Assembly (NCBI GenBank): GCA_963647095.1 | Contig: CAVIYC010000001.1 | Coordinates: 1-44,024, forward strand | DNA length: 44,024 nt | Direction: 5' to 3' | Origin: Oscillospiraceae bacterium | GTDB taxonomy: Bacteria; Bacillota_I; Bacilli_A; RFN20; CAG-826 | Part shown: positions 4,597 through 38,331 of the stretch, one piece after another | How the letters are laid out: every line of letters starts with the position of its first letter | Position numbering within the stretch: the first letter of the stretch is position 1 | Translations under genes and position numbers: made by a program | Notes under the pieces: model-generated | What the model was told of the DNA's origin: nothing | Databases searched by the model: none | What the model saw: only the letters and a program-made list of their open reading frames with translations

Positions 4597-4626
4597 TAAA
4601 GGATAATGGCTATAATGAACAAAGTT

Positions 4627-23401: not shown

Positions 23402-25072
23402 TTAAGCCTTTGAAATCTGGAGAACGGCTTTTTCGGCGGATGTCGATGTGACCGTAACGCTCCAAGGGAGGCTAGTCCCGTCGTTCATCACGCTCTTGTA
23501 GTTGTTGTAATAGGCCGGGAAGGATTTCGCATACAGAGAATAGGAGAACGTTGTGCCGGCGGTAAACAAAGAAGTGTTCGAACAAACCAAGGCTTGGCCC
23601 GCCTTATCGCATTCCGTGTCGTAGTTTTTCTTGCTCGTGCAATCGATCAATTGGATGAGTCTGTGAGACAAATCCCCGACCGTGCCTTTGCTATTAACGT
23701 AGTTATAGGCGGCCGTGTTGGAATTCACCACATATACGGTTTCGTCGTCATCGAATGAATCGACATACGCGTTAAGGTCGTCTCCGGCGCTATTCAAATT
23801 GGCCAACCTGGCGTCGATATGATAGATGCGGATGCCTCTGTTGGTCATTCCTTGTATGCCGTTGGAATAAACTTCGTCGCTATCGGATTCGTTCAATCCT
23901 TCCGGCGTGTAATATTCAAGGAGCATGTATTCGTCAAAAGCCATGCCGTTCCATCCGCCGGAAGTCGGGAGAATGACGAATTCCCCGGAAGTGCTGGCGG
24001 GTTTTAGTTCGATTGTGCAGCTTGAGGTTGGGACATACGGGTTAACCCAACCCAAAGCGAATTTGGAGAATGAGTTGTGGTCGATGACGTTGGCATCCAT
24101 CATATCAACCCATCCGGTAGGGCCATAATTCTTGCTATATTCGTCGCAATCCGCGGAAACGTAGTAATCATCCAACCCCAAAAGGTGTCCGGTTTCGTGA
24201 ATGTAGGTATGGGCGTCTCTGCTCTTCGTGCCATAACCTTCGTACATGAAATCATACGAAGCCCAAGCATAGTGGTAACCGACGGGGCTTGTCTTGTATT
24301 TCTCGATATCGCCATATGTTTTGCCATTTACCACCGAAGTGTCGAAATAGGTGTAAGCCCAATATGTGTTGGAGTCCATCGTTTTGTTGTTGGAAGCGTT
24401 GGGGGCGCCATAAACGAGCCAAACGGCATCGAAGAAACCGTCGTGGTTGGTATCGAAAGAAACGCCTTTGTCGCTATAAGCGGTCTTATACCAGTTGACG
24501 GCGTTTTCCAAAATCGTCCAGGTCGGATCGTATCCTTCCGTCGAAGACGACAAATTGGCCAATTGCTTGGAGTTGTAACCGCAGTCGTACCAATCGGTGA
24601 CGGCGCCTTGGATATTCAATTTTCCAAAGGAAGATTTGTAATAGAAAGAAGACACCGATTGCCAACCGGTTTCCTCCGGTTTCCCAAAGAAGGTTTTGTA
24701 TATGTCGGTTCTTATATCAGCTGTGGCGTATTTGCTAAAATCCGACAATTTGACGGGGATAACCAAAATCCTCGGAGAGCCAACGGACGGAAGGTTGGTG
24801 GTCCATGAGGTTTGGCCAACCCTGTCGTAGGTGTCCTTGCTGTTTGTTTTTAATTCGACCCCTTGGGCGGTGTAACTCGGATCGTTCGCGTCGCATCCGA
24901 ATTCCGTGCCATCGTTGTTATAAACGTAAAGCCCTTTGTCCGTCGGTATCTCTTCATCGGAAATGCTGGAGTCTCCTCCGGTGATTTTGTCTAATATGTC
25001 CAAAATGGAACAGCTGGCCAACGCAAATGCCGAGACAGCGGCCATAACAACCAACAATTTGCGATTCTTCAT
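23402..25072 (-). CDS. Secreted lipoprotein, M6 (immune inhibitor A)-like zinc metalloprotease
   Basis: Lipoprotein signal MKNRKLLVVMAAVSAFALASC (lipobox LASC). HExxH appears in IHETGHLLGLDDYY, and a DGFFDAVWLVYGAPN block resembles M6/InhA. GGAGG lies 8 nt upstream of ATG 25072. The ORF-track TTG at 25087 falls within the Shine-Dalgarno sequence. Confidence 0.72.
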   Translation of the reverse strand: MKNRKLLVVMAAVSAFALASCSILDILDKITGGDSSISDEEIPTDKGLYVYNNDGTEFGCDANDPSYTAQGVELKTNSKDTYDRVGQTSWTTNLPSVGSPRILVIPVKLSDFSKYATADIRTDIYKTFFGKPEETGWQSVSSFYYKSSFGKLNIQGAVTDWYDCGYNSKQLANLSSSTEGYDPTWTILENAVNWYKTAYSDKGVSFDTNHDGFFDAVWLVYGAPNASNNKTMDSNTYWAYTYFDTSVVNGKTYGDIEKYKTSPVGYHYAWASYDFMYEGYGTKSRDAHTYIHETGHLLGLDDYYVSADCDEYSKNYGPTGWVDMMDANVIDHNSFSKFALGWVNPYVPTSSCTIELKPASTSGEFVILPTSGGWNGMAFDEYMLLEYYTPEGLNESDSDEVYSNGIQGMTNRGIRIYHIDARLANLNSAGDDLNAYVDSFDDDETVYVVNSNTAAYNYVNSKGTVGDLSHRLIQLIDCTSKKNYDTECDKAGQALVCSNTSLFTAGTTFSYSLYAKSFPAYYNNYKSVMNDGTSLPWSVTVTSTSAEKAVLQISKA

Positions 25073-25097
25073 ACTAACGACCTCCAAAGAGCAAGAT

Positions 25098-25117: not shown

Positions 25118-25149
25118 GAAAAAGAAAAAACTCCACTTTAATGGAGTTT
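25118..25149 (-). terminator. Rho-independent terminator after the PIN/KEP-rich gene
   Basis: The minus strand reads AAACTCCA-ttaaag-TGGAGTTT followed by TTTCTTTTTC. Confidence 0.7.
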
Positions 25150-25154
25150 CTTCG

Positions 25155-26657
25155 TTAGAGAATTTCTCTTTGTTGCTTTAAGAATTCGACGTCCAATTTG
25201 ATCTGTTTCTTTTCTTCTTCGCTCAATTTGTCGTAGAGCTTGAAGAACGAATCGATGTCTTTGGATTTCTTCTCTTTCGGATAGTTGGGGTTGGAAACGT
25301 TGGCGGAAAGCCTCTTTTCGAGAGCTTGGGTCTTCTCCAAAGGAGTTTTCTTTGGAGCGGCCGGTTTCTTTTCTTCGGCTTTCTTTGGAGTGGGTTTGGC
25401 TTCGGTTTTCTTGCTCGTGGCTTTTTTGGCTACGGGGTTTTTCTCTTCGGCCTTTTTAACTTCAACTTTCTTTGCGGTCTTAACCTCGGATTTGGCCTTT
25501 GGTTTGGCCTCGGCCTTAGCTACGGGTTTTTCCTTCTTTTCGGAAACGGGTTTTTTCTCCGTTTCTTTGGCTTTGACTTCGATTGGCTTGGAAACCGGCT
25601 TGTTTTCAGGTTGATTAACCTCTTTTTCCGTTTCCTTTATTTGAGGTTTTGCTTTCTGAATCGGGGCGGTTTCTTGCTTTTGGGGCAAAGGCTCCAAGGA
25701 AGTCGTGGCCTTGAAGTCGCGTTCGGTTTTTTCGACCACCATCTTCAAGCCTTTGACGTTGATGGAAAAGCTATCGCCGGTTTTGGCCAAAGCGTTGTTC
25801 GGCAATTTGGATAGCAAGACGTCTTTGGTGACGTCGACCGGTCCATGGATTCCTTTGACATATGGAATGGACGCGTCGTCGCGAATCAATACGTTAAGGC
25901 GTTTCGCCGAAGCGATTACGGCATCGACCGGGGTAGACCCAAAATCATAAAACGGTTTGTTTTGTTTTGGCTCGGCCGGCTTTTCTTCTTTCTTTGGAAG
26001 ATTGGCTTTGGCGGGTTTCTGCTCGATTTTCGGAACGGAAATTGGCTTAACTTCAATCTTTTTGATTTCTTTTTTCTCCACCTTCAAGGCGGGGGCTTTC
26101 TCTTTCTTGGCTTCTATCTTCTTAAACTCTTTGGGCTTATTCAAAGAATGTCCTTCCAGCTGACCTCCGGCGTTAATTTTCATAACGGCCAAAAATCTTC
26201 CGTTTTGGGAGCCTAGGCTGTTTAGTTTATCGAGATCGTAGGCAAGGTTTTTGTCTTGGGTGATGACTAGGACTCTGTAATGGATTCTGAGAACGGTTGC
26301 GGTTGCTAAGATGGATGGATCTGCGAAGGTGTCGCCTTTTCTCTGCTGCCTTTTCGCCACTTGGATTACGTGATGTCTTCTTTGCGCGTCTTTCAATATG
26401 TTGAGCGCTCTAACTGCATCGATACGAGCTTCGCTATAATGCCAATCCTTGTTGGCGGCGTGTTTCTCAAGCTCCTCGATACATTCTTTCAAGGTGATGA
26501 CTTCCAATCCGTCTTTCCAATATCTCTTCGAACCAACCAAGGCGTCCATGAATAACGGGAATCCCTCATCCATCAAGGCGCAGGTATCGATGATGACCCT
26601 GTCGTAATTCGATAAGACTTTTGCCAATGAAGAGAACGTTTTCTCTTGGCTATACAT
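25155..26657 (-). CDS. PIN-domain protein with long Lys/Glu/Pro-rich (histone H1-like) tracts, 500 aa
   Basis: The N-terminal ~165 aa carry a PIN-type acidic tetrad in context: D24 (VIIDTCAL), E61 (ECIEELE), D113 (FADPSI), D135 (ITQDKNL). Two KEP-rich low-complexity tracts flank a ~90-aa ordered segment (PFYDFGSTPVDAVIASAKRLNVLIRDD...). The C-terminus is helical. GGAGG Shine-Dalgarno is present. Confidence 0.6.
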   Translation of the reverse strand: MYSQEKTFSSLAKVLSNYDRVIIDTCALMDEGFPLFMDALVGSKRYWKDGLEVITLKECIEELEKHAANKDWHYSEARIDAVRALNILKDAQRRHHVIQVAKRQQRKGDTFADPSILATATVLRIHYRVLVITQDKNLAYDLDKLNSLGSQNGRFLAVMKINAGGQLEGHSLNKPKEFKKIEAKKEKAPALKVEKKEIKKIEVKPISVPKIEQKPAKANLPKKEEKPAEPKQNKPFYDFGSTPVDAVIASAKRLNVLIRDDASIPYVKGIHGPVDVTKDVLLSKLPNNALAKTGDSFSINVKGLKMVVEKTERDFKATTSLEPLPQKQETAPIQKAKPQIKETEKEVNQPENKPVSKPIEVKAKETEKKPVSEKKEKPVAKAEAKPKAKSEVKTAKKVEVKKAEEKNPVAKKATSKKTEAKPTPKKAEEKKPAAPKKTPLEKTQALEKRLSANVSNPNYPKEKKSKDIDSFFKLYDKLSEEEKKQIKLDVEFLKQQREIL

Positions 26658-26720
26658 TAAATAACCTCCTTATGGATTGTATTTTACTCCCATAAACAAA
26701 TATTGACCACTTAACAAAAA

Positions 26721-27152
26721 TCAGCGATCTTGGCCAATTTGCTTAAGGTATCTATTTAAGATCACTCCCGCTGCGGCGGAGTCGATGTTGCTCTTTTGCT
26801 GTTTGCTGCTTTTTCCGGATTCATGAAGGAAAGCCGAGGCTTCCACCGTGGAATTCCTTTCGTCGACTTTGACAATGTCGACATTAGGAAACGTTACTTC
26901 CAATTTTTTGATAAATAATTCGACTACCGGCGTCATTTCGCATGGATCGCCGGACGGAAACAAAGGCCAACCGATGGCTAAATGTTCTATCGTTTCGCCT
27001 TCGATGACGGATTTTAATCCCTCTATCGCTTCGTCGTAGCAACCGGCGTGAAATCTGAGGTTCTTTAGCAATGTTACGAAAATGCCGCTCCTGGAAATAG
27101 CGATTCCCAAGCTTCCTTTTCCCAAATCCAACGCCAGAATGTTTTTTTGCAT
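26721..27152 (-). CDS. ruvX: Holliday-junction-resolvase-like pre-16S rRNA nuclease RuvX/YqgF
   Basis: 143 aa with ILALDLGKGSLGIAIS, VDERNST and DSAAAGVIL motifs. Confidence 0.9.
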   Translation of the reverse strand: MQKNILALDLGKGSLGIAISRSGIFVTLLKNLRFHAGCYDEAIEGLKSVIEGETIEHLAIGWPLFPSGDPCEMTPVVELFIKKLEVTFPNVDIVKVDERNSTVEASAFLHESGKSSKQQKSNIDSAAAGVILNRYLKQIGQDR

Positions 27153-27234
27153 AAATAGACAAATGGATAATATAACTTTGACCGGGGTTTTTCCACTTAT
27201 CTCTTTTTATGACTCGCCCATAACGCGAGTTAGA

Positions 27235-27262
27235 TTGCTTTATTTTCAATAACGGATATAAT
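27235..27262 (+). promoter_or_regulatory. Candidate promoter TTGCTT-16 nt-TATAAT for the O-antigen-ligase-like gene
   Basis: The sequence reads gaTTGCTTtattttcaataacggaTATAATcgag and lies 22 nt upstream of ATG 27285. Confidence 0.45.
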
Positions 27263-27284
27263 CGAGAAACTTGAATTGAGTTAT

Positions 27285-29369
27285 ATGGTTGACGAAGAAG
27301 CAAGGCAAGGCCGACTAAAGAAATTGATAGCCAGCGGTTTTTCCAGAAGATACGTATTGGTTTTCGTTTTGCTTATCCTTTATATCGCCTTCACGGCCTT
27401 CACCACCGAAAGTTTGTCTATCTTCAATGGCGAAGTTTCGAACATGAATGACTTGGAATTCTATTTGATGGCTTCCGCCTCGTTGTTATTAGGGGCGGGG
27501 ATCATTATTTTCGCGTTTAAGTCATTCAACGCCAAATTCAATCGGCCGTTATTCGTTATTTGCGCGGTTTTATTGGTCATTGACATAGTCGCCGTTTCGA
27601 CTTTTCCCGAAACCATCAGCGCCAATTGGATGACTTATACGATCCATAATAACGAAAGAATCAGATATATCTTCAATTGGTTGGTCGCGGATGTCGGAAT
27701 TTATATATTCATCGGAATCGTTCCTTATATCTTCAAATCCCATACCGGCGTGGATTTTTGGCTTTGGGTCGGAATCTTCGTCGGGGTTCTTTTGACCGTT
27801 GCCTCATTGATAACCGAGCAAGAGGCTTGGAAAAGCATGTTTTCTGGCGGTAATTTTGAAGGCTTAAAATCATTGACCAACAACAAGAACACTTTTGGAT
27901 TCGCCATTCTTTGGTCTTTTAATTGCTCGCTCATCCTTTATGCCAAATATCACAAACCCTATTTCCTCGCTTTCTGCATATTCTTCGTTTTGATGACGGT
28001 GGCCACGGTTTGCAAAACCAGCATAGCCACCTTGGGAATAGAGGTTTTGTTAACCATGATCGTGTTCCCGATAATCTCTTGGAAGAAACGAAAGAAGGGC
28101 CAAATAATCTTCCTTTCGATAATGGCCGTTTGTATCGCCATAGTCCTTTTGATTGCTTATGTTCCCATCGAACCGTTGAAAGGATTAAGCAAACTCTTGA
28201 AAGACGAGTTGAATTTAATCTTCCATTTGAGTGGGGGGACGATGACCGGCAGGACCGATATTTGGAAAGGCATTTTCGCCGGCTTTAAGGCAAAGCCGAC
28301 CGTTTTGCTCTTTGGAGCCGGGGATTCCGTTTTCGAATATTTCGTCGGGGTGTACGCCGCGGACGGGATGACCGCAAAATTGGCCGCCCACAATGGCTTT
28401 CTCTACGTCTGGGGTCGTTTGGGAATCGTTGGTTTGTTGGTATATGTCTTCTTTATCGGCTACATCATTTATAACGTTATCCGCGCGATCAAAGTAAGAA
28501 AAGAAACCTGGATGGCGGTTTTGTTCATAGTTTTGTTCGGCTTCTTATGCCACTCGATGGCCGAGGATGACGCTTTGTTGGACATGAGATTGAAAGGAAT
28601 GATGTTCTTGGGAATCATTTGGTGGCCGATAGGCGTCTCTAACAGGGATTATAAATTGTCCATCTGCAAAGAAGCCCAAAAAGAAAAAGTCAAAATCACG
28701 ACCTTGGAGAAAATCACTTCTTTGGACGTTTTGAAGACTTCCTACATGATTTCGATGGTTCTATTCGTTGTTTTCGTGGGATTGGCCCCGTTGTTTGAAA
28801 CGGCGTTTGGGTCATGTTTGTTCAATAACAAATATTCATTGTCGGGATTGACGGTTTTGTTCCTGGTCGGACCTTTGTTGTTCTACGAAGCCAAGGAACT
28901 CAAAGATTCAGGCAATAAAATTTGTTTCATAATGCATACGATATTATCGGCGTTTGTTGTGGTCATTGGCGTTGTCGTTGGCGCCACAATCAATTCGTTG
29001 TCTTATCCAATCGCAATGACTTTCGTTTTGTTGTTCGTTTTGACGGAAGGCGCTATCGGAGCCAAATTCCAAAAGCTCTCTATAAAGGATGTTTACCCTT
29101 TATTGATAAAAGTCTTTGTCGCCGTGTTGGTCGTTGGTCTGTCTCATTGCCTTAACGCCGGCTTGCCTGCGGAAACAATGAAAACGTGCTTGGTGGCTAT
29201 GCTTTGCTTGTATGTTTCATTGGAAATGTTGGTGTTGTCCATATTCCCGAAAGAAAAGTTTTATAACGGCGCGGCAGGCTTTTTGGAAGCCAACTTCGAA
29301 AGCAAACACGAAACATTCGCCGATAGAATCGAAATAGAAGTAAACGAAAGAATGAATTCTACTTACTGA
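27285..29369 (+). CDS. O-antigen ligase/polymerase (Wzy_C)-like polytopic membrane protein with extra C-terminal TM domain
   Basis: ORF 27276..29369 starts at TTG; I prefer ATG 27285. A Wzy_C-like block AAHNGFLYVWGRLGIVGLLVYVFFIGY is present. An additional ~230 aa with 6 or more TM segments follows residue ~470. Confidence 0.6.
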   Translation: MVDEEARQGRLKKLIASGFSRRYVLVFVLLILYIAFTAFTTESLSIFNGEVSNMNDLEFYLMASASLLLGAGIIIFAFKSFNAKFNRPLFVICAVLLVIDIVAVSTFPETISANWMTYTIHNNERIRYIFNWLVADVGIYIFIGIVPYIFKSHTGVDFWLWVGIFVGVLLTVASLITEQEAWKSMFSGGNFEGLKSLTNNKNTFGFAILWSFNCSLILYAKYHKPYFLAFCIFFVLMTVATVCKTSIATLGIEVLLTMIVFPIISWKKRKKGQIIFLSIMAVCIAIVLLIAYVPIEPLKGLSKLLKDELNLIFHLSGGTMTGRTDIWKGIFAGFKAKPTVLLFGAGDSVFEYFVGVYAADGMTAKLAAHNGFLYVWGRLGIVGLLVYVFFIGYIIYNVIRAIKVRKETWMAVLFIVLFGFLCHSMAEDDALLDMRLKGMMFLGIIWWPIGVSNRDYKLSICKEAQKEKVKITTLEKITSLDVLKTSYMISMVLFVVFVGLAPLFETAFGSCLFNNKYSLSGLTVLFLVGPLLFYEAKELKDSGNKICFIMHTILSAFVVVIGVVVGATINSLSYPIAMTFVLLFVLTEGAIGAKFQKLSIKDVYPLLIKVFVAVLVVGLSHCLNAGLPAETMKTCLVAMLCLYVSLEMLVLSIFPKEKFYNGAAGFLEANFESKHETFADRIEIEVNERMNSTY

Positions 29370-30249
29370 ATTCTTTGATGGCGCCGACTTTGCCGGAATA
29401 AACGCGATAGCCTTCTTCCAACAACGTGAGCTCGGCGTTCAAGATAGCTTTTCTGTCCCTGCTTAAAGCAAAGAACGCCGATCCAGAACCAGTCATGGAA
29501 ACTATTTCGGCTCCAAGGGCTCTGACTTTGTCCATTTCCTTTTCTAAATCAGGATAAAGCGACAAGGCCGCCGGATACAATTCATTGACCACGCCGTTGA
29601 TGACATTGGCTTCGTTTCCTTCCGCCAAATCTTTGATCAATTGATCGGAAGTCCCTTGTTCTATGCTCATCGTATCATAAGCGGCATATACGTCTTTGGT
29701 AGCCAAACCCTTTTTTGGGGCTATAAGCAAAATGTAATAATCTTTGGCTACGGTAATCGGTTCCAAACTTTCTCCGACGCCGGTTAATCTAACGGGTTGG
29801 GGTTTGATGAAGAACGGTACGTCCGCTCCCAATTCCAAACCGATTTTTCTCAATTCGTCGTCGGTGGCGTTCAATTTGAGCAATTTGTTGATGGCTCTGA
29901 TGACGCAGGCGGCGTTGGAAGATCCACCTCCCATTCCGGCGGCGACCGGAATAAGTTTATGGATCCTGATTTCGAAATTTTCCTCAAAGCCATAATGGGC
30001 GCGCATGACATCCACCGCTTTTTGGCAGATGTTATGGTGGTTTCTCTGCAAAAAAGGAAGATCGCAAACAACGGTCGTGCTCTTGGCGTATCTATTTACG
30101 ATAACTTCGACCACATCGTGGATGGTCGTTGGCAAAACAACGGAATCCAAATAATGATATCCGTCTTCCCTAACGCCTTTGACGTGCAAAGACAAATTTA
30201 TTTTGGCATATGACTTCAATGTCACCGAATGCAATCTGAACAATTTCAT
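29359..30249 (-). CDS. ispE: 4-diphosphocytidyl-2-C-methyl-D-erythritol kinase
   Basis: 296 aa with AKINLSLHV and the GHMP kinase motif PVAAGMGGGSSNAA. Its stop overlaps the convergent upstream gene by 11 nt. Confidence 0.9.
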   Translation of the reverse strand: MKLFRLHSVTLKSYAKINLSLHVKGVREDGYHYLDSVVLPTTIHDVVEVIVNRYAKSTTVVCDLPFLQRNHHNICQKAVDVMRAHYGFEENFEIRIHKLIPVAAGMGGGSSNAACVIRAINKLLKLNATDDELRKIGLELGADVPFFIKPQPVRLTGVGESLEPITVAKDYYILLIAPKKGLATKDVYAAYDTMSIEQGTSDQLIKDLAEGNEANVINGVVNELYPAALSLYPDLEKEMDKVRALGAEIVSMTGSGSAFFALSRDRKAILNAELTLLEEGYRVYSGKVGAIKEFSK

Positions 30250-30255
30250 ATAGCG

Positions 30256-30261
30256 ATAATA
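30256..30261 (-). promoter_or_regulatory. -10-like TATTAT 6 nt upstream of the ispE ATG (leaderless-type)
   Basis: The minus strand reads gagtaTATTATcgctatATG. No Shine-Dalgarno sequence. Confidence 0.3.
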
Positions 30262-30296
30262 TACTCTTAGGCGCCTTTTAATAAAACGCAGTTTTG

Positions 30297-31109
30297 TTAA
30301 TCTTTGTCTTCCACGGCGTCCAACAATCTCAAATAGTCGTCCAAAGTCAATGTTTCAGGCCTGGCTTTTAAAGATATGTTGGCTTTTTCCAACGCGGCTT
30401 CAGACTTGTCCGCATCGTTTAAAACGTACTGAAGATTATTGAAAATGGTTTTGCGGCGATGTGAAAACATCTTCGTGACGAAGCCATATAAACGCGAAGC
30501 TTTGTCCAAGTCTCTGTCACGCTTGAATTCCAGGCTAAAGACTATGGAGTCGATGTGCGGAGCCGGAACAAATGAATCCCTCGGCACCAAGAATTCTCTT
30601 TTGACGTTAGCCACATAACTAAGCAAAATCGGCAAAGGTCCATAATCTTCCGTGCCAACTTTGGCGGAAAGCCTTAAGAACGCTTCTTTTTGAACCATTA
30701 AAACGGCTTTCCTACATGATTTCGATTCCAAAACGATCTTTTCGATCAAACTTGAGGTGATGTAATAAGGAAGGTTTCCAAGAACCAAATCATAGTTGGA
30801 AAAATCCGCCTTTAAGGCGTTTTGGAGAATCGGGTGAATATGTGGGTAATCTTTAAAATCTTCTTTTAGCTTCGTTACCAAGCCTTCATCGATGTCTAAT
30901 AACGTCGCTTCCGCATTATAATCCGCCAAAAACACGGAAAGAGAGCCTGCTCCAGGGCCGATTTCCAAAACTTTGTCTCCGTCTTTGATATCCAACAAAG
31001 CCACGATACGTCCTGCGTCTTTTTCGGAAATGAGGAAATTTTGGCCAACTTCGTGTTTGGCTAGCAACTTATATTCTTTTACCTTCTCGAAATATTTGCT
31101 TTTATCCAT
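30297..31109 (-). CDS. rsmA: 16S rRNA (adenine1518/1519-N6)-dimethyltransferase RsmA/KsgA
   Basis: 270 aa with GQNFL, SAM motif EIGPGAGSLS and GNLPYYITS. Confidence 0.93.
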   Translation of the reverse strand: MDKSKYFEKVKEYKLLAKHEVGQNFLISEKDAGRIVALLDIKDGDKVLEIGPGAGSLSVFLADYNAEATLLDIDEGLVTKLKEDFKDYPHIHPILQNALKADFSNYDLVLGNLPYYITSSLIEKIVLESKSCRKAVLMVQKEAFLRLSAKVGTEDYGPLPILLSYVANVKREFLVPRDSFVPAPHIDSIVFSLEFKRDRDLDKASRLYGFVTKMFSHRRKTIFNNLQYVLNDADKSEAALEKANISLKARPETLTLDDYLRLLDAVEDKD

Positions 31110-31635
31110 TTATCATTCCCTCCAGCTGCGAATACGTAATACCTAAGGCATTCGCCCTCTTTAAGAACGTTTTGCCATTGGTTATTCCGATATTTAACTT
31201 ACTTCCGACGCGTTTTCTCAATTCCGCCGAACTATCCAAACCAACCAAACCAAGATTATAGAGGTCGGCCATAGTCAATGAAGCATTCGGGGCTTTCTTT
31301 TCCGGAACTAGATGAGACAAAGCCTCTAAAATCGTGTCTTTGTCACATTCCGCCACTCCGACTTTGTGTTTCTTTATAGATTTTTCTTTGGGCACGAAAG
31401 CGTGTTTTGCCGAAGGCACCCTTTGAGAAATCGTATCTCTTATCTTTTTGCCCGGAGAGTCCGGATCCAACAAAAGGATTATGTCTCTGGTTTTGGCGGC
31501 CTCTTCTATATATCTCAACGTTTCTTCCGATATCGCCGAACCGTTGGTCGTAACGATATCCGCGTCGATAAAAGAAGAAAGCAAGGCTTCGTCCATCTTT
31601 CCTTCAACTACGATTATCGCATCTATTCTTTTCAT
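31102..31635 (-). CDS. rnmV: Ribonuclease M5 (Toprim)
   Basis: 177 aa with IIVVEGKMDE and LLDPDSPGKKIR Toprim motifs. Conserved tatD-rnmV-rsmA order. Confidence 0.88.
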   Translation of the reverse strand: MKRIDAIIVVEGKMDEALLSSFIDADIVTTNGSAISEETLRYIEEAAKTRDIILLLDPDSPGKKIRDTISQRVPSAKHAFVPKEKSIKKHKVGVAECDKDTILEALSHLVPEKKAPNASLTMADLYNLGLVGLDSSAELRKRVGSKLNIGITNGKTFLKRANALGITYSQLEGMING

Positions 31636-32405
31636 CTCTTCACCTTAAAAAGTCTTTCGAAGTTCGCGTTCAAGCGTTCTTTCAATTCTTCTTCGCTTTC
31701 ATTCCTTAGTAAAACCATTTGATCGAATATTTCTTTTATATAGGCCGGCTGGTTTTGCTTGCCGCGATACGGAACCGGCGGCAAATACGGGGAATCGGTC
31801 TCAATAAGCAATCTGTCAATGTCGCATTTTTTGACGCATTCCTTCGGAGTTACCGCGTTCTTGTAGGTGATTGGCCCGTCAAATCCGAAATAAGCGCCCA
31901 ATTTCTCGAATCGGCCCATCATCTCTTCGGAGCCGGAATAGCAATGGAGAACAAAACCGTTCTCAATCGGATTGTCTTTGATTATTTGATAAACGTCGTT
32001 TGAGGCGTCTCTGGCGTGTATCGAAACCGGAAGCTTCAATTTATTCGCCAACCTTATTTGCTTTATGAACCATTCTTTTTGTTCTTTTTTGGTTTCTTCG
32101 TCGTTTTTCCAATGGTAGTCGAGGCCGATTTCTCCTATCGCCACGACTTTGTCGGATTTAGCCAAGTCTTCTAGCTTCTCCAACGATCCGTCGTTCTCGT
32201 CTTCATAGTTTTCAGGGTGTATTCCCACCGCCGCGTAAACCCCATCATATTCATTAGCCAATTCAACGGCTTTTTTTGAGCTTTCCAAATTCCAACCAAC
32301 AACCAAAAACGCGTCGATTCCGCGCTTTTTTGCATTTTCTATCGCTTCTTTGGCGTTTATTCCGTCATCGTTTAGATGGCAATGGCTATCAAATAGGTTC
32401 TTCAT
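31632..32405 (-). CDS. tatD: TatD-family metal-dependent hydrolase/DNase (YabD-like)
   Basis: 257 aa with FDSHCHL, GEIGLDY, SIHARDA and ETDSPYL motifs. Confidence 0.9.
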   Translation of the reverse strand: MKNLFDSHCHLNDDGINAKEAIENAKKRGIDAFLVVGWNLESSKKAVELANEYDGVYAAVGIHPENYEDENDGSLEKLEDLAKSDKVVAIGEIGLDYHWKNDEETKKEQKEWFIKQIRLANKLKLPVSIHARDASNDVYQIIKDNPIENGFVLHCYSGSEEMMGRFEKLGAYFGFDGPITYKNAVTPKECVKKCDIDRLLIETDSPYLPPVPYRGKQNQPAYIKEIFDQMVLLRNESEEELKERLNANFERLFKVKR

Positions 32406-33737
32406 TTATTTACCCACGCAGAAACGAGAGAAAATCTCGTCGGTCAAATCGTTGGTGGCCTCTTCTCCGAGAAGTTCCCTGACACAGTTATAGGCGGCCA
32501 TCAAATTCACGGAAACAAAGTCGATCGGGGCGTTGGACACGCAATCGATTTTGGCTTGGGCCAAAGATGAATCTATTTGCCTTAAAAGACCAAGTTCGCG
32601 CACATTGGACAACGAAGGGTTCTTATACGCTTCTTTGGTTAATCCCAAACATTCGTATAAGGCGTCTTCCAAAGGCTTCAATTCGCCTTTTGCCGCCGAA
32701 ATATACAGTTTTCCGTCTTCTTTGTTCTTTAATTCGTCTTCTTTGTTATAACAAACGATCAATTTCTTGTCTTTCGCCAATTCTTCGATTTCTTTTTCTT
32801 TCTCGCCGAATCCGTTTGTCGCATCGACGACCAAAACGACGATATCCGCTTCTTCTATGGCTTTTTTGGAACGTTCCACGCCTATGGCTTCGACTACGTC
32901 CGCTTCCTCTCTTATGCCGGCGGTGTCTAAGAAGGTGACAGGCACGCCTTTGAGGTTATAGCTTCCTTCTATGACGTCTCTGGTTGTTCCGGGTATGTCG
33001 GTGACGATGGCTTTGTTCTCTTTGAGCAAAGCGTTTAGAATCGATGATTTTCCAACGTTTGGCTGGCCGACCAAGGCGACTTTCACGCCATAACGGACTA
33101 TCTTTCCTTTTTCTCCGCCATCTATCAAAGAAGAAATGTTCTTTCTGATCTCATCTATTTTGGAAACGATGATTTGTTCGTTCATTTCCTCGATGTCTTC
33201 ATATTCCGGGAAGTCTATGTTCACTTCCACGGACGATAGCAATTCCGCCAAAGAATCCCTTAATGGCTTAATCAAATTCGATGTCTCGCCTTTATAGGAA
33301 AGCAACGATAGATTCTTGGCTTCTTTGGTGGTCGCGCTTATCAAATCGTTGATTGATTCCGCTTCGAGCAAATCCATCTTCCCGTTATAAAACCCGCGAG
33401 AGGAGAATTCCCCTCTTTCCGCGTATCTCGCGCCCGACGAAATATAGGCTTCAATGATTTCGTTAACGATAACCATCGATCCGTGGGAAAAGATTTCCAC
33501 CACATCCTCTCCGGTAAAGGAATTCGGATGGGGATAAGCCAGCAAAACGACGTTGTCGATCAATTCGCCGTTATAGGAAATATCGCCGACGAAAGACGTT
33601 CTTTTGCTTATTGGGGAAATTTCTTTCGAAAACAATTTGTCGGTCAACAAGAAAGCGTCGTCTCCCGAGACTCTTATTACGGCGAGGGCGCTCATTAAGG
33701 GCGGCGTGGCCAATGCGACGATGGTGTTGCTTTTCAT
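32406..33737 (-). CDS. mnmE: tRNA modification GTPase MnmE/TrmE
   Basis: 443 aa with G1 GQPNVGKSSILNAL, G3 DTAGIRE, NK.D (YNKED) and the C-terminal CVGK tetrapeptide. Confidence 0.95.
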   Translation of the reverse strand: MKSNTIVALATPPLMSALAVIRVSGDDAFLLTDKLFSKEISPISKRTSFVGDISYNGELIDNVVLLAYPHPNSFTGEDVVEIFSHGSMVIVNEIIEAYISSGARYAERGEFSSRGFYNGKMDLLEAESINDLISATTKEAKNLSLLSYKGETSNLIKPLRDSLAELLSSVEVNIDFPEYEDIEEMNEQIIVSKIDEIRKNISSLIDGGEKGKIVRYGVKVALVGQPNVGKSSILNALLKENKAIVTDIPGTTRDVIEGSYNLKGVPVTFLDTAGIREEADVVEAIGVERSKKAIEEADIVVLVVDATNGFGEKEKEIEELAKDKKLIVCYNKEDELKNKEDGKLYISAAKGELKPLEDALYECLGLTKEAYKNPSLSNVRELGLLRQIDSSLAQAKIDCVSNAPIDFVSVNLMAAYNCVRELLGEEATNDLTDEIFSRFCVGK

Positions 33738-33755: not shown

Positions 33756-33778
33756 AAAAGAAAAGGGCTTAAGCCCTT
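33756..33778 (-). terminator. Rho-independent terminator after jag (perfect palindrome AAGGGCTTAAGCCCTT)
   Basis: The 16-nt perfect palindrome at 33763-33778 overlaps the jag stop codon. On the minus strand it is followed by TTCTTTTTG. Confidence 0.6.
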
Positions 33779-34373
33779 ATTCTACATAGAAGATGTTGAC
33801 GGCCCTTTCGTTGCCTTCGCCGGAAGATTCGGTTTTGATGTTCTTCCAACCGGTCAAGGTGTTATGGACGATTCTTCTTTCGTCCGGGGTCATCGGATCC
33901 AATTGGACCGGATATTTGGTCTTGATGACCTCTTCCGCGGCGCGCTTGGCTAAGTAGGCTATGCGGGAATATCTGTCTTCCTTATAACCTCCGACGTCGA
34001 GAAGGATTCTATAGCGGTGGCGGAATTTGTTGGAGACGGCAAGCCTTACCAATTCATTCAAAGCTTGCAGGGTTCGGCCTCCTTTGCCGATTAAGACCGG
34101 ATTTCTCTTGGAATCGATATTTAAGCGGATAAGGCCGTCATCGATGGTGGCGGAGGTGGTTATCTCGACTCCCATCGCCCCCAAAACGTCTTTCAGATAA
34201 GATTCGGCGTAAGAAACCGCGTCCTCTTCGGTATAAACCTCGATGCGGGCTTTCTTGAACAATCCGCCTTTTTCTTCGACGACTTTATAAAGCAAACGAT
34301 TGGTTGGAATTCCAAGTTCCAAGCAAGCGTTGTTGACGCATTCGTCAACGGTTTTGCTCACGTATTCTTTCAT
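33777..34373 (-). CDS. jag: Jag/KhpB RNA-binding protein (Jag_N-KH-R3H)
   Basis: Starts MKEYVSKTVDECVNNA, with a KH-like LIGKGGRTLQALN and an R3H segment LDPMTPDERRIVHNTL. ATG 34373 forms an ATGA overlap with the yidC stop. The ORF-track start at 34466 is an extension inside yidC. Confidence 0.88.
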   Translation of the reverse strand: MKEYVSKTVDECVNNACLELGIPTNRLLYKVVEEKGGLFKKARIEVYTEEDAVSYAESYLKDVLGAMGVEITTSATIDDGLIRLNIDSKRNPVLIGKGGRTLQALNELVRLAVSNKFRHRYRILLDVGGYKEDRYSRIAYLAKRAAEEVIKTKYPVQLDPMTPDERRIVHNTLTGWKNIKTESSGEGNERAVNIFYVE

Positions 34374-35956
34374 GCTTGTTTCTTCTTTCCTTTGTTTTTG
34401 CGGGCCTTCATGATGGCTTGGATGACCAAAGTCTGGATGATGGAGATTATGGCGCCGATTGCCCAATAAGCACCCATGGCGCTAGGCAAAGACAAACCTA
34501 AGATCGCGGTGAAGATAAACATGACCCAAGCGATGGTTTTGCTTTGGCTTTGTTGTTTATCCCCAGCTGGATTGGCGGTCAATTTCTCGATTTTGTCAGC
34601 CTTTTTCTTATTTATCCATTGCGGCAATTTCATGGAAACGAACTGGAATCCGATCATCAAGATATAAAGGACCAAAGCCGTCCACCAGCCATTTCCATTG
34701 GTGGTGAAGTTGCCTTTCGGTTGGGTGATGACGCTCAAGATGGTGTCGCTTAAATGCAACCCCAAGAAGGAACCGGTGCTTAAAGCGGCGGATCCGCGGA
34801 AGGCGCCCCAAACGCCCATGAATAACGGGAGTTGGATAATCAAGGTGATGATGGATGAGAACGGGCTAACCTTATTCCTCTTATAAAGAGCTTGGGTTTC
34901 CTGGGCCAAACGCTGTTTTTGGGCTTGGTTCTCGTTGCTGTTTGGATATTTCTGCTGGATGCGGGCGACATCTCCTTGGAGAGCCTGCATCTTTTGCTGG
35001 TCGATGGTTCCTTTCATCGTGACGAGCATCAAGAAGATACGGACGATGAAGGTGACGATGACCAAGGACAATATCTGTCCAACGCCGGACAAAGAAGGAT
35101 CGATGGCGTTGGCGAAATAGTCGGTCAGATAAGCGACCGGATAGGAGATCAAACCAGCGATGAAGCCTTGCTTCCAAGCATAAGCCCAAGTCTTGTTCTC
35201 GATATCGACGGTCCAGTCTTTGTTATCGCCATAGGCTCCGTATTGAGAGCCGGAGATGGTGGAAATACAAGAGGTGTTGGCGTTGATTTGCTTGGTGATG
35301 GAGCTTTCGTAGGCGCTCAGGAATTCGGTGGTTGGCGCGCCGGTGATGCCCATTCCCTGTTCGGTGGAGTATTTGGCTTCTTGGACCCACTTCTCGATAT
35401 TGGCGAACAAAGTGAGTTCCCCTTCGGAATCGGTTCCCAAGAATTTGAGATAGCCGTATTTGCGAAGGATGGAATCTTTGTTGATGGTGGTTCCTTCTCC
35501 GCCGACGGAATCCGCGACGTCATAAGGGTTGATCATGGCGGCGGTGACGCTACTAGTCGAAACGCCGCTGGCGGCGATGGCCGTATCTAAAACCTTTTGG
35601 TCTAAGGTGATCCAGAATTTTTGCGACGGCACCGCATATTTGTTGGTGGTCGCCGAGGAGATGATGGAGTTTAGGTTGCTCGCTTTTTTGGCAGCGAAAT
35701 TCCCGGAAGTATCGACGGGGACATAGGCATAAAGAGTGTCGTTGTCGTCGTAAACTTTCCAAGAAAGGCCTTCGCCCTGATATTCGGTTGGAACAGCGTC
35801 TTTGTCGCAATAAATGGTGACGCCTTGCTCATAAGGATAAGCGATGTGCGCTTTATCGGTCACTGAGCAGAAATCGGCATTGCACCCGCTTAAAAGAACA
35901 GCTCCCGCCAATAAGGCCATGGAACCGAGTAGGGTCTTTTTCGTGCTCTGTTTCAA
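34370..35956 (-). CDS. yidC: Membrane protein insertase YidC/OxaA, lipoprotein type with large N-terminal ectodomain
   Basis: 528 aa with lipobox LLSGC at residues ~21-25, a ~270-aa soluble region, then the YidC core (LSLVIVTFIVRIFL, QKMQALQGDVARIQQKY, PLFMGVW) and a basic tail. The TTG start at 35956 has GGAGA 8 nt upstream. Confidence 0.9.
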   Translation of the reverse strand: MKQSTKKTLLGSMALLAGAVLLSGCNADFCSVTDKAHIAYPYEQGVTIYCDKDAVPTEYQGEGLSWKVYDDNDTLYAYVPVDTSGNFAAKKASNLNSIISSATTNKYAVPSQKFWITLDQKVLDTAIAASGVSTSSVTAAMINPYDVADSVGGEGTTINKDSILRKYGYLKFLGTDSEGELTLFANIEKWVQEAKYSTEQGMGITGAPTTEFLSAYESSITKQINANTSCISTISGSQYGAYGDNKDWTVDIENKTWAYAWKQGFIAGLISYPVAYLTDYFANAIDPSLSGVGQILSLVIVTFIVRIFLMLVTMKGTIDQQKMQALQGDVARIQQKYPNSNENQAQKQRLAQETQALYKRNKVSPFSSIITLIIQLPLFMGVWGAFRGSAALSTGSFLGLHLSDTILSVITQPKGNFTTNGNGWWTALVLYILMIGFQFVSMKLPQWINKKKADKIEKLTANPAGDKQQSQSKTIAWVMFIFTAILGLSLPSAMGAYWAIGAIISIIQTLVIQAIMKARKNKGKKKQA

Positions 35957-35960
35957 TTTT

Positions 35961-36287
35961 TTAATCTCCGATTGTGGTGAGGGCGCGTTTTAGTTCCTCC
36001 CGGATCTCGTTGCGATTCTCGGGTTTGTAGTTCGGCCTCACTATGATAATTAAGTCGAATGGGTAGTCGGTGCTGAATATCTCGTCGCAGATAGCGCGAA
36101 CTTGTCGCTTTATGCGCACCCTTTGCACCGCTCCGCCGTTTTTCTTCCCAACGCTGATTCCGATTCGGATCGATGGGGTTTCTTTTTTCACCCAATATAT
36201 GGTGGAGAATTCGCCCCTAACGCAGTTGTGTTTGTGGATTATTTCGGAAAATTCTTCGTGGGAATGGACGCGGTTTGTCTTCTTCAT
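35961..36287 (-). CDS. rnpA: Ribonuclease P protein component
   Basis: 108 aa with the basic RNR-like block GISVGKKNGGAVQRVRIKRQVR. Conserved rpmH-rnpA order. Confidence 0.9.
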   Translation of the reverse strand: MKKTNRVHSHEEFSEIIHKHNCVRGEFSTIYWVKKETPSIRIGISVGKKNGGAVQRVRIKRQVRAICDEIFSTDYPFDLIIIVRPNYKPENRNEIREELKRALTTIGD

Positions 36288-36294
36288 TCAAAAA

Positions 36295-36429
36295 TTAGGC
36301 GGCGATTTGGGCTCTGCCTTTGGCACGGCGACGGGCAAGGACTTTGCGGCCGTTGTTGGTTTTCATGCGAGCGCGGAATCCGGCTTTGTGGGCGTGTTTG
36401 ATTTTGGATGGCTGGTAAGTCTTTTTCAT
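36295..36429 (-). CDS. rpmH: 50S ribosomal protein L34
   Basis: Absent from the ORF track (44 aa). My translation is [49 protein letters not shown] lies 8 nt upstream of the ATG. Confidence 0.95.
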
Positions 36430-36466
36430 ATTGTTTTCCTCCGAGGTGTACTAACTATGCTTGGGA

Positions 36467-36495
36467 ATTATATAGACAAAGGCGGGCATAAGCAA
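36467..36495 (-). promoter_or_regulatory. rpmH promoter TTGCTT-17 nt-TATAAT
   Basis: The minus strand reads gtgtTTGCTTatgcccgcctttgtctaTATAATtccc. Confidence 0.55.
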
Positions 36496-36590
36496 ACACA
36501 AAAGCGCGTGAGGGTGCGTGTGTGAGAGGGCTTTTTGTTTGCTTGGAAGGTGATTTCGCCAAGAATTGTTACACTGTCAAAAATAAAAAC

Positions 36591-36791
36591 TTATCCACAT
36601 TCGGCGTTTCCGTTCGTCCACCTCCAATTAAAGAACATCGATTGTTGTCAATTTCGTGTTGATAATGTGGATAAGTGGCAAAAATAGTTGGCTTTCGATG
36701 GTTTTAGACTTTATTTTATGTGGAAAAGTTTGTTCAAAAAGCGTTCTCAACATAAATCGTAAAGACTGAGATTTATTAAAAGTTTTCCACT
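36591..36791. other. oriC part 1: DnaA-box cluster upstream of dnaA
   Basis: TTATCCACA at 36591-36599 is a perfect box. TGTGGATAA at 36666-36674 is perfect in inverted orientation. TGTGGAAAA at 36719-36727 matches 8/9. TTTTCCACT at 36783-36791 matches 7/9. All lie in the 374-nt (36430-36803) AT-rich rpmH-dnaA spacer. Confidence 0.75.
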
Positions 36792-36860
36792 TTTACCATT
36801 ATTTTGAGTGTTGAAAACCTATTGTCGCACATTGCGCGTCGTGATAATATTTCGGACGTT

Positions 36861-38231
36861 ATGGCACAAAGCATTTCCAAAATGGTGGCGGTTTGGGACA
36901 ACGCCCTTAAAACAATCAAGTCCCAAATGAACGACAGACAAGCTTTCGACACGTTTTTCGGAGGCACTTACGTTGACAAAATAACCGATAGAGAAATGGT
37001 TGTTGTTGCCAGCACGAATTTGGCTTGCTCGCTTTTAAAAGAAAATTTCATGAAGCTCATTCGCAAAGCTTTGGAAGGGCAAGTCCCCGAATCAACCGAA
37101 ATAACCTTCATTTGCAAATCTGATGAGCAAAAATCCGAAGAATCGGCAAAACCGCAAACCAGATCATTCTTCGCAGATTCTAAAATTAATAGGAAATACA
37201 CTTTTGATAATTTTATTAACGGACCATCAAATAAAGCGGCATATCAAGCGGCAATTTTCGTGGCGTCGAACCCGGGTGCTTTATACAATCCTTTGCTTAT
37301 TTTCGGTGGATCCGGACTTGGAAAAACGCATTTGTTGCACGCGATCGGAAACCAAATCAGAGAAAAGAATCCTTGGGCCAATGTTTTGTACGTGACCACC
37401 CAAGACTTCTTTGACGAATATGTCCATTATGTCAGAGGAGAGCAAGAAGGCGAATCTCTCAAAGCGTTCTTCAAACGTTCTGTCGACGTTTTGTTGGTTG
37501 ACGATATTCAGTTCTTGGTTGGCAAGAGGGGGACCGAAGAAATGTTCTTCTCCGTCTTTCAAGCTTTGTATGTCGCCGGAAAGCAAATCGTCATCACCTG
37601 CGATCAATTGCCTTCCAAATTGCAGGGTTTGGACGAACGTCTCAGAACCCGTTTTGAGCAAGGTTTGCCAGTTTCGGTGGGGAAACCGACCAAAGAAACC
37701 TGCGAAGCCATCGTAAAGAACAAAATCATCGATGCCGGCTTGGATGTTTCGTGTTTGGACCCGGAGGTTTTGTCTTATTTCAGCTCCCGTTTCAATTCCA
37801 ACGTCAGAGAATTGGAAGGCGCGGTAAACCGTTTGGTCTTCTATGTGCAAAACATCGAAAACAAAGATTACATCGACTTAAAAACCGCGATTGATTCGGT
37901 GAGAAGCTTAGTGGATGGAAAATCCGACGAAAACGCCGCCTCAATCCAAAAAGTCATAGATGTCGTGGCGGAATACTATCATTTGCCCAGCGAGCAATTG
38001 ATATCCAAGTCGAGAACCGCCCAAATCGCCTTGGCAAGACACGTCGCCATGTATTTGTGCAGGGTTTTGCTGGACTCTCCATATAAGAAAATAGGCGAGG
38101 CTTTTGGCGGCAGAGACCACGCGACTGTTATCAACGGCATCAAGAATGTGGAAACGATGTTGAAAGAAACCCCGTCTCTCCAAGCCGTTTTGGATGACTT
38201 ATCGGCGAAAATAAAACCAAACGATAAGTAA
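36861..38231 (+). CDS. dnaA: Chromosomal replication initiator DnaA
   Basis: ORF 36804..38231 starts at TTG. I prefer ATG 36861 (MAQSISKMVAVWDNALKTIK) because the Trp position matches other DnaA N-termini and TGATAATAT (36842-36850) lies 10 nt upstream. It has Walker A GGSGLGKTHLLHAIG, box VII and the C-terminal DNA-binding segment DHATVINGIKNVE. Confidence 0.95.
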   Translation: MAQSISKMVAVWDNALKTIKSQMNDRQAFDTFFGGTYVDKITDREMVVVASTNLACSLLKENFMKLIRKALEGQVPESTEITFICKSDEQKSEESAKPQTRSFFADSKINRKYTFDNFINGPSNKAAYQAAIFVASNPGALYNPLLIFGGSGLGKTHLLHAIGNQIREKNPWANVLYVTTQDFFDEYVHYVRGEQEGESLKAFFKRSVDVLLVDDIQFLVGKRGTEEMFFSVFQALYVAGKQIVITCDQLPSKLQGLDERLRTRFEQGLPVSVGKPTKETCEAIVKNKIIDAGLDVSCLDPEVLSYFSSRFNSNVRELEGAVNRLVFYVQNIENKDYIDLKTAIDSVRSLVDGKSDENAASIQKVIDVVAEYYHLPSEQLISKSRTAQIALARHVAMYLCRVLLDSPYKKIGEAFGGRDHATVINGIKNVETMLKETPSLQAVLDDLSAKIKPNDK

Positions 38232-38291: not shown

Positions 38292-38331
38292 TTATCAACA
38301 TATCCACACGACCTTATTATTAGTCTTATTT
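38292..38331. other. oriC part 2: two DnaA boxes, GC spacer and trinucleotide (DnaA-trio-like) repeats
   Basis: TTATCAACA (38292-38300) and ATATCCACA (38300-38308) each match 8/9. CGACC follows, then TTA TTA TTA GTC TTA TTT (38314-38331), which reads 3'-AAT AAT AAT CAG AAT AAA-5' on the other strand. An AT/purine-rich run extends to the dnaN Shine-Dalgarno sequence. Confidence 0.6.

Follow-up and report, generated by a model that had tools for sequence, protein, structure and literature searches.

A PIN-domain protein with lysine-rich linkers and two orphan folded modules in uncultured gut Bacilli of the order RFN20

The window analysed here, a whole stretch of 44,024 nt of contig CAVIYC010000001.1 (GCA_963647095.1; Oscillospiraceae bacterium, GTDB order RFN20, CAG-826), carries on its minus strand an open reading frame (ORF) at 25155..26657 that runs from an ATG start to a TAA stop and encodes a PIN-domain protein of 500 aa. 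The protein is composed of an N-terminal PIN domain with a conserved acidic tetrad, a central folded domain, and a C-terminal helical module, connected by two disordered linkers of net positive charge, and its gene occupies a stable chromosomal position with no partner gene. We give a probability of roughly 0.5 to the proposal that it is a cytoplasmic, stand-alone, vertically inherited PIN-domain endonuclease that acts most probably on RNA and is held to it by the cationic linkers. The catalytic PIN domain is already known in the sense that routine annotation detects it; new is the conserved architecture, in which two orphan folded modules and cationic linkers are combined in a stand-alone PIN protein. 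An earlier interpretation made from the DNA letters (the sequence-only reading) had described a PIN nuclease with histone-H1-like tracts and could not place this architecture in a described family. Our searches led to the same result: the whole architecture gave no NCBIfam match and no Pfam match beyond PIN_4, no characterised family with such a tail was found, and a literature search found no paper describing this PIN family.

The N-terminal domain was assigned by profile searches, structure prediction, and conservation. In the whole protein, Pfam PIN_4 (PF13638) matched residues 22-138 with E = 4.6e-6 (27.4 bits, compared to a gathering score of 21.9) and was the sole Pfam model above its gathering threshold; residues 1-178 alone scored 29.3 bits. 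The family lies at the edge of the PIN_4 model, because only 16 of 58 members reached it at E <= 0.01, while four matched PIN_12 instead. A full-length AlphaFold2 model built on the 58-sequence family alignment predicted residues 1-172 with a predicted local distance difference test score (pLDDT) of ~95 and the alternating beta/alpha layout of a PIN domain, with strands at residues 20-23, 52-56, 98-101, 129-132, and 156-161. When this model was searched against the PDB using Foldseek, every match at E < 6e-3 was a PIN domain (range 7e-5 to 5e-3), the matches being PINA (5f4h), AF0591 (1o4w), SMG6 (2hwx/2hww), EST1A (2dok), 3i8o, TTHA0540 (3ix7), Utp24 (5yz4), and Utp23 (4mj7). VapC toxins were found weakly in the same search (E ~0.2). 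Judged by the profile scores and the conserved tetrad, the PIN-domain match is more than chance, and the PIN fold that had been predicted for the N-terminus was upheld by both kinds of search.

Conservation was examined in ~193 family members. The putative site-A residues D24 and E62 were conserved in 99% of them and D113 and D135 in 100%, and residues T25, T133, D141, N146, S150, and G153 were kept in 98-100%; at the N-terminus of the PIN region, residues 2-15 form a further conserved element, the helix MYSxExKxSSLAKxL. All peptides quoted in the sequence-only reading were present in the ORF, including VIIDTCAL (D24), FADPSI (D113), ITQDKNL (D135), and the K/E/P/A peptides. Of the tetrad proposed there, the three aspartates were found in the expected contexts, but the conserved glutamate of KECIEELEKH is E62 and not E61. 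Comparison of the family PIN profile with PDB sequences placed Fcf1/Utp24 nearest, at a level that was not significant (E = 0.19-0.35); the ELxK, [FY]AD, and T[QN]D motifs align E62, D113, and D135 to the catalytic E, D, and D of Utp24. Proteins of the VapC-like group of the PIN-like superfamily have a Rossmann-like alpha/beta/alpha fold with a central parallel sheet, and site A of the superfamily is formed by four conserved Asp/Glu residues (Matelska et al. 2017, PMC5499597); the site-A numbering of SMG6 and Utp24 was taken from the same work. Both features were found here, the Rossmann-like fold in the model and the four-acid site A in the alignment, and the protein is a member of the PIN-like superfamily and of its VapC-like structural group.

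In prokaryotes, few nuclease folds are as common as the PIN domain, and to our knowledge almost all characterised bacterial PIN proteins are small VapC toxins or PhoH2/YacL-type fusions. With the PIN_4 group (SMG6/EST1A, Swt1, and PhoH2), the present protein shares the fold and the four-acid site A, SMG6/EST1A being among the best structural matches, and as in SMG6 the PIN domain is one module of a larger, multi-domain, non-toxin protein. However, the accessory modules all differ: there is no PhoH ATPase, no 14-3-3-like/TPR region, and no eukaryotic nonsense-mediated-decay context. PhoH/AAA was matched neither in Pfam nor in NCBIfam, and no P-loop/Rossmann-like domain, as expected of a PhoH2 protein, follows residue 172. 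Fcf1/Utp24 (COG1412, PF04900) and archaeal PIN_9 (AF0591, 1o4w) were strong structural matches, with target-normalised template modelling scores (TM-scores) of 0.59-0.65. Fcf1/Utp24 proteins, however, are single-domain subunits of the eukaryotic/archaeal small-subunit processome that have no Lys-rich linkers and neither of the two folded modules described below, and PF04900 was not matched at E <= 10. PIN-TRAM proteins (YacL-like) are non-toxin bacterial PIN proteins, and 3ix7 from Thermus thermophilus was matched at E = 1.1e-3 with a target-normalised TM-score of 0.65; we take both 3ix7 and 3i8o from Methanocaldococcus to be of the YacL type. No TRAM match was obtained here, and the N-terminus forms a polar amphipathic helix, with no membrane helices. 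VapC toxins belong to the same superfamily and also have an acidic active site, whereas the present protein is 500 aa long (430-780 aa in the family) compared to ~130-150 aa, has no adjacent co-directional antitoxin, and resembles VapC structures only at the weak level given above. Finally, RNase E and RNase Y resemble it in layout: behind the catalytic head come long, charged, disordered regions that bear short conserved modules. This is a functional analogy only; the catalytic fold of RNase E/Y is unrelated to PIN, and there is no homology.

The part of the protein that follows the PIN domain had been read as ~330 aa of mostly low-complexity sequence. The tracts are real, but they amount to ~175 aa of disordered linker, the other ~155 aa being folded (pLDDT > 90). 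Linker 1, with its composition taken over residues 173-234, consists of 34% K, 16% E, and 13% P. In linker 2, taken over residues 326-440, Lys accounts for 30%, Glu for 16%, Ala for 13%, and Pro for 12%, and the most cationic part is at residues 371-437. Within the window, a tract of this kind is confined to the PIN ORF, as judged from every reading frame of 100 codons or more. An origin of the linkers from tandem repeats was rejected, none being detected in the DNA here. The linkers could not be aligned between family members, but without exception the 119 members had linkers of net positive charge (median +26, from +4 to +49), and therefore it is composition and charge that are conserved, not sequence. 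Acidic residues (D+E) make up 16% of the linkers here, and the family median is 12%.

The likeness of these tracts to H1, Hc1, and HU-extension tails, which had been noted earlier, holds as a loose compositional analogy: both are Lys/Pro/Ala-rich, disordered, and net cationic. It does not extend to homology. With 16% Asp+Glu the linkers are polyampholytes, whereas H1 tails are nearly free of acidic residues; they are internal rather than terminal; and no linker-histone or Hc1 profile was matched in Pfam at E <= 10. Because a net positive linker charge has been kept in every member, it is plausible that the linkers tether the protein to nucleic acid.

The central domain, modelled alone with AlphaFold2, reached a pLDDT of 94.8 and a predicted TM-score (pTM) of 0.86, with secondary structure elements in the order beta-alpha-loop-alpha-alpha-beta-beta-beta. 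It is the ordered segment of ~90 aa that had been seen to interrupt the low-complexity region, here delimited as a folded domain of 91 aa. Its motif is [FIV]RDxS[VI]PYxxxxHGPxDLT; H271 and G272 were 100% conserved, and R259, Y266, and D275 were conserved in 93-94%. No Pfam match was obtained for this domain, nor did any family recur when all 38 aligned members were scanned. Foldseek searches returned nothing significant from the PDB (best E = 0.2, with a vague PAS/GAF or roadblock/longin likeness) or from BFVD (best E = 0.12), and neither did a sequence-profile search of the PDB, which gave only a Pol protein (6rwo, E = 0.07). In some relatives, the variant S[VI]PYNPQFHGPxDLT (residues ~262-275) recalls PYNPQSQGVVES of retroviral integrase catalytic cores. 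A relationship to retroviral integrases, as suggested by the likeness of the PYNPQSHG stretch and the 6rwo match, was nevertheless rejected, and the likeness was taken as chance because an RNase-H-like core would not fit into so small a domain and the predicted topology is a different one.

When 1.84 billion representative proteins were searched exhaustively with a profile of the central domain, only 94 matches were obtained, 93 of them genuine. The genuine matches were mostly 430-780 aa long, with the domain located mostly between residues ~230 and 450. Seventy-seven matches were new to the set: 74 of these proteins have the PIN domain of the family, two are fragments truncated at the N-terminus, and the last is a weak, spurious match. 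Every complete carrier of the central domain had the same PIN-protein architecture, and the domain is therefore specific to it. The sequence-only reading had missed that this segment is a family-specific domain with an invariant His-Gly pair (hereafter the His-Gly domain).

The C-terminus, which had been described as helical, is indeed so, with AlphaFold2 helices at residues 439-453, 461-476, 480-483, and 490-499; what had gone unseen is that it is also a repeated module. Its consensus is DxRLxANLxNPNYPxxxKxxDIxxQLxxLxxL, and N456 and Y459 are ~95% conserved. We counted 366 copies of this NPNYP module in ~195 family proteins, mostly two per protein; among 119 members, 91 had two copies and 26 had one. 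The second copy of most relatives is located between the PIN and the central domain, within linker 1, and the clade of the window has lost the first copy. There was no significant PDB-sequence or Pfam match for the module, and its identity with a known domain was rejected, the only candidates being uL29 (E = 0.02) and Elongin_A (E = 0.017-0.025), both non-significant. Separately, a short, conserved hydrophobic motif, VPxGATLLVG(x)P, was observed within linker 2 of 62 of 119 homologues (for example at residue 535 of P0012 and residue 445 of P0027); the protein of the window and its nearest clade do not have it. This may be a short linear interaction motif. The coordinates of all domains and gene signals are given in Table 1.

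Table 1 Features of the PIN-protein gene and its product in the window
Feature	Residues	Position	Strand	Basis or remarks
PIN nuclease domain	1-172	26142..26657	-	Pfam PIN_4, AlphaFold2, Foldseek, conservation
Disordered linker 1	173-231	25965..26141	-	K/E/P-rich, net charge ~+11, pLDDT < 50
Central family-specific alpha/beta domain	232-322 (91 aa)	25692..25964	-	AlphaFold2 and conservation
Disordered linker 2	323-435	25353..25691	-	K/E/A/P-rich, net charge ~+17, pLDDT 45-57
C-terminal helical NPNYP module	436-500 (65 aa)	25158..25352	-	pLDDT 92-95
Shine-Dalgarno sequence AAGGAGG		26665..26671	-	7 nt before ATG; evident from the DNA letters
Hairpin of 13 pairs with a T-run behind it, resembling an intrinsic terminator		25124..25153	-	Directly after the TAA stop
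Weak sigma-70-like promoter candidate, TGGTCA-17 nt-TAAAAT		26681..26709	-	Consensus scan, 9/12 matches; in the gap between ruvX and the PIN gene

The family was found to be restricted to uncultured gut and rumen Bacilli. A word-indexed search returned 118 homologues of 471-761 aa, nearly all unnamed; a few were labelled "rRNA-processing protein FCF1" by the Joint Genome Institute (JGI) and one "hypothetical protein [Bacilli bacterium]", and seven NCBI-derived clusters of the family had no protein name. When one genome per GTDB species was scanned with a single peptide pattern, the gene was detected in at least 105 species. The sensibly labelled carriers were metagenome-assembled genomes of uncultured Bacilli, "Mollicutes", "Erysipelotrichaceae", and Candidatus Enteromonas from the guts of humans, ruminants, horses, and chickens; the "cleanbin" records of one submitter are named after organisms such as E. 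coli and Bacteroides, which is implausible. Candidatus Enteromonas belongs to the GTDB order RFN20 (PMC8035907), and the only taxonomically anchored carrier of the family is of this order. A profile search for wider relatives with the PIN domain alone gave only fragments and a single, distantly related stand-alone protein of 181 aa, P0204 (L082 4001-4546; E = 4e-14, 27% identity). P0204 keeps the motifs IIDTSS, ELNRF, ADAYI, and VITQD, and its context is unrelated: upstream of the gene is one for a Ser/Thr protein kinase of 725 aa, and an ORF of 53 aa separates the two.

The start codon of the PIN gene is correct, since the N-terminal MYS[QE]E is conserved family-wide and just four sense codons lie upstream of the ATG. 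The sequence-only reading had given the gene a strong Shine-Dalgarno sequence and a terminator of its own, and both were found again, the former with a 7-nt spacer and the latter as a hairpin and T-run at 25153-25124. Promoter-like sites around the gene were not more numerous than expected from shuffled sequence, so that the gene may be co-transcribed with the upstream ruvX; from the candidate sites, transcription independent of ruvX is likewise possible.

The order RFN20 includes a clade in which AGG is reassigned to Met and one in which CGG is reassigned to Trp (PMC8629427). The PIN ORF contains neither CGG nor CGA, and at codon 449 it uses AGG for the Arg that is conserved in the DxRL motif; a genetic-code artefact was therefore ruled out, and the standard translation stands. 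As a side observation, in-frame CGG is nearly missing from the window, accounting for 6 of 496 Arg codons (13,226 codons in 35 main ORFs) and for none in eight housekeeping genes, and the CGG trinucleotide is common on the plus strand (764 observed vs ~541 expected from base composition). The in-frame sites are codon 357 of 4606-6345(+), codon 79 of 9646-10536(+), codon 90 of 27276-29369(+), codon 4 of 33777-34466(-), and codons 169 and 247 of recF, 39796-40869(+).

In the window, the PIN gene lies directly downstream of ruvX (26721-27152; Pfam RuvX E = 1.6e-26), as the sequence-only reading had stated, with a gap of 63 nt; on the other side, a gene for a predicted lipoprotein of 561 aa follows after 67 nt. 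These gaps leave no room for an adjacent antitoxin. A general co-occurrence with ruvX did not hold up. The PIN gene's neighbours in the window were compared by tblastn with 80 related loci, 76 of which had at least 1 kb of upstream sequence, and ruvX was found upstream in only two of the 76, the two closest relatives (L001 and L002). The adjacency is thus incidental, and a functional link between the two genes was rejected. We also observed that ruvX stands next to a tatD-rnmV-ksgA-ispE block (26721-33737, minus strand), with a divergent Wzy/O-antigen-ligase-like gene between them (27276-29369). This arrangement is common only to the window, L001, and L002.

No conserved operon partner was found across the 80 loci when upstream and downstream ORFs were clustered. 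The neighbours were heterogeneous: the upstream genes elsewhere are unrelated (an XRE regulator, a ROK kinase, a MutY-like protein, and glycosyltransferases), and the downstream genes also vary. In 20 loci, a divergent XRE-type helix-turn-helix (HTH) gene lies upstream of the PIN gene at a gap of 90-660 nt (L003, L004, L005, L012-L015, L017, L033, L038, L044-L047, L049, L056, L063, L075, L077, and L080). Its product has ~203-247 aa (mostly 206-211), with an HTH N-terminus and a hydrophobic, multi-helix C-terminal half. It was rejected as an antitoxin: the gene is divergent, it encodes a protein of ~209 aa with a membrane domain, and no homologue of it was found in the window.

More constant was a gene for HSP20: in 34 of 66 informative loci it lies a few kb or less downstream, in the same orientation, and is often followed by a gene for an M24 peptidase. 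Across loci, identity was ~45% for the PIN domain, ~40% for HSP20, and ~62% for M24. This synteny at comparable divergence indicates a vertically inherited chromosomal gene and not part of a mobile toxin or defence island. A defence or phage origin was likewise rejected, with zero PADLOC and PHROGs matches at E <= 1, and the surroundings in the window consist of core genes (tatD, rnmV, ksgA, ispE, mnmE, jag, yidC, dnaA, dnaN, recF, and gyrB). Considering its own Shine-Dalgarno sequence and terminator, the lack of a conserved partner, the absence of PADLOC and PHROGs matches, the HSP20 synteny, and the core-gene surroundings, the gene is most likely a housekeeping gene rather than a mobile one. 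The same evidence, together with the missing antitoxin and the length of the protein, agrees with the earlier statement that this is not a VapBC-type module. The position given for it, ~10 kb from oriC, was also borne out: dnaA (36804-38231) and the DnaA-box clusters at 36233-36727 and 38292-38308, which hold the only two perfect boxes of the window, lie ~9.6-11.6 kb from the PIN gene.

Two further observations concern other genes of the window. The lipoprotein ORF directly downstream of the PIN gene (23402-25087, minus strand) has a lipobox-like LASC near the N-terminus and a zinc-protease-like HETGH (HExxH) and no Pfam match at E <= 1e-3; homologues of it were detected by tblastn in the PIN-gene flanks of 29 of the 80 related loci, on either strand. 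A YidC-like ORF (34370-35956, minus strand), 528 aa long from a TTG start, is matched by Pfam 60KD_IMP only at residues 296-513 and overlaps a downstream jag/khpB-like ORF (33777-34466, minus strand) by 97 nt. Either the N-terminus of this YidC is greatly extended, or the TTG start of one of these ORFs has been misplaced.

We propose that the PIN domain holds Mg2+ or Mn2+ through D24, E62, D113, and D135 and would cut single-stranded nucleic acid; the conservation of these residues suggests that the protein is catalytically active. Its substrate would most probably be RNA, as for the nearest structural relatives, SMG6 and Fcf1/Utp24. The characterised PIN_4/Fcf1 members SMG6, Swt1, PhoH2, and Utp24 are endoribonucleases (PMC5499597), and because the enzymes closest in fold and motif are endoribonucleases, we infer by analogy that RNA is preferred to DNA. 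The net-positive disordered linkers would serve as non-specific electrostatic tethers on polyanionic RNA or ribonucleoprotein, raising the local substrate concentration, while the His-Gly domain and the NPNYP module may provide specific docking, self-association, or regulation. A secreted or surface protein was considered, given that K/E/P regions occur in Gram-positive surface proteins, and was rejected, the N-terminus being polar with no signal peptide or membrane helix. Several points weigh against the proposal. The sequence similarity to Fcf1/Utp24 is not significant (E = 0.19-0.35), and the substrate class is taken from distant relatives alone. Some PIN-like enzymes cut DNA, Lys-rich tails are as ready to bind DNA as RNA, and the best Foldseek match, PINA, is a DNA-repair protein in which the PIN domain has a structural role. 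The linkers, 16% of whose residues are acidic, could also be entropic spacers rather than binders.

The question of DNA was considered further as a separate explanation, in which a nucleoid-associated nuclease binds the chromosome by its linkers and processes flaps or junctions with its PIN domain in connection with ruvX. Four observations would fit such an enzyme: ruvX lies directly upstream, at 63 nt in the window, and is also there in the two closest relatives; the top Foldseek match is to the PIN domain of PINA, an archaeal Holliday-junction helicase; cationic linkers are expected to bind DNA; and oriC is ~10 kb away. We nevertheless consider it unlikely. The ruvX gene is upstream in just 2 of 76 informative loci, and the other neighbours are unrelated; the alignment with PINA is meaningful over the PIN core only (TM-score ~0.2, root-mean-square deviation ~19 A, 331 columns); FEN-type enzymes scored worse (T5 D15, E = 0.13), and the model shows neither a helical arch nor an H3TH element; and the linkers, with their acidic residues and no histone-like Pfam match, differ from H1/Hc1 tails. 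An inert scaffold, in which the PIN fold serves RNA binding or oligomerisation as in Utp23, SMG5, and PINA, is improbable. Inactive PIN domains are documented in the same groups (Utp23 and SMG5; PMC5499597), and PINA and Utp23 were among the Foldseek matches, but inactive PIN domains typically lose one or more site-A residues (PMC5499597), whereas here all four acids are 99-100% conserved over deep divergence, and so are T25, T133, and D141. The least probable explanation, to which we give very little weight, is a VapC-like toxin or defence nuclease that is inhibited either intramolecularly, for example by an NPNYP module folded back over the active site, or through an unlinked antitoxin. In prokaryotes, the majority of PIN proteins act as the toxin of a toxin-antitoxin system (PMC5499597), and ~20 related loci have the divergent XRE-type gene upstream. 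This gene, however, has the wrong properties for an antitoxin (~209 aa with a membrane domain, divergent at 90-660 nt, and absent from the window), and the 63- and 67-nt flanks are too small for an antitoxin ORF. Moreover, PADLOC and PHROGs gave no match, the gene has remained in stable synteny with core genes, at a divergence like that of its neighbours, VapC structures were matched weakly (E ~0.2) compared to SMG6 and Utp24, and the listed genome loci, judged by eye, each come from a different assembly accession.

A different role for the accessory parts would be that of an organiser resembling RNase E or RNase Y, with the PIN domain as the head of an assembly for RNA decay or ribosome maturation and the linkers, the His-Gly and NPNYP modules, and, in relatives, the GATLLVG motif recruiting partner proteins or ribosomes or driving RNA-dependent condensates. 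This refines the proposal of an RNA-directed, linker-tethered endonuclease rather than contradicting it, and we regard it as possible, with a probability well below even. A catalytic head with long charged disordered regions and short conserved modules has been kept family-wide, and strong selection acts on the accessory modules (H271 and G272 at 100%, N456 and Y459 at ~95%). Fcf1/Utp24, the nearest proteins by sequence profile, process pre-rRNA (PMC5499597), some members bear the JGI label "rRNA-processing protein FCF1", and a precedent is reported for Rrp6, in its Lys-rich, RNA-binding, nuclease-activating C-terminal domain (PMC5314766). On the other hand, no conserved neighbourhood with RNA-decay or ribosome genes was found and no partner was identified, the proximity to rnmV and ksgA being confined to the window and its two closest relatives. 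A more specific form of this idea is doubtful, less probable than the DNA nuclease: a lineage-specific RNA-decay or RNA-processing organiser in RFN20, a PIN-based analogue of RNase E/Y in which the His-Gly domain is a new sensor or catalytic fold. In such an organiser, the linkers would capture RNA or drive condensation, the His-Gly domain, with its invariant His and conserved Arg/Asp, might be a second activity or a sensor of RNA ends or ligands, and the duplicated NPNYP modules might recruit partners or ribosomes.

These findings have limited practical impact: none of the hosts is in culture, and standard annotation already recognises the catalytic domain. If the protein is an RNA-processing or RNA-decay enzyme of the genome-reduced gut order RFN20, it would represent a new bacterial ribonuclease architecture and a test case for the part played by cationic disordered linkers in nuclease targeting, and its His-Gly and NPNYP modules would define two new domain families.

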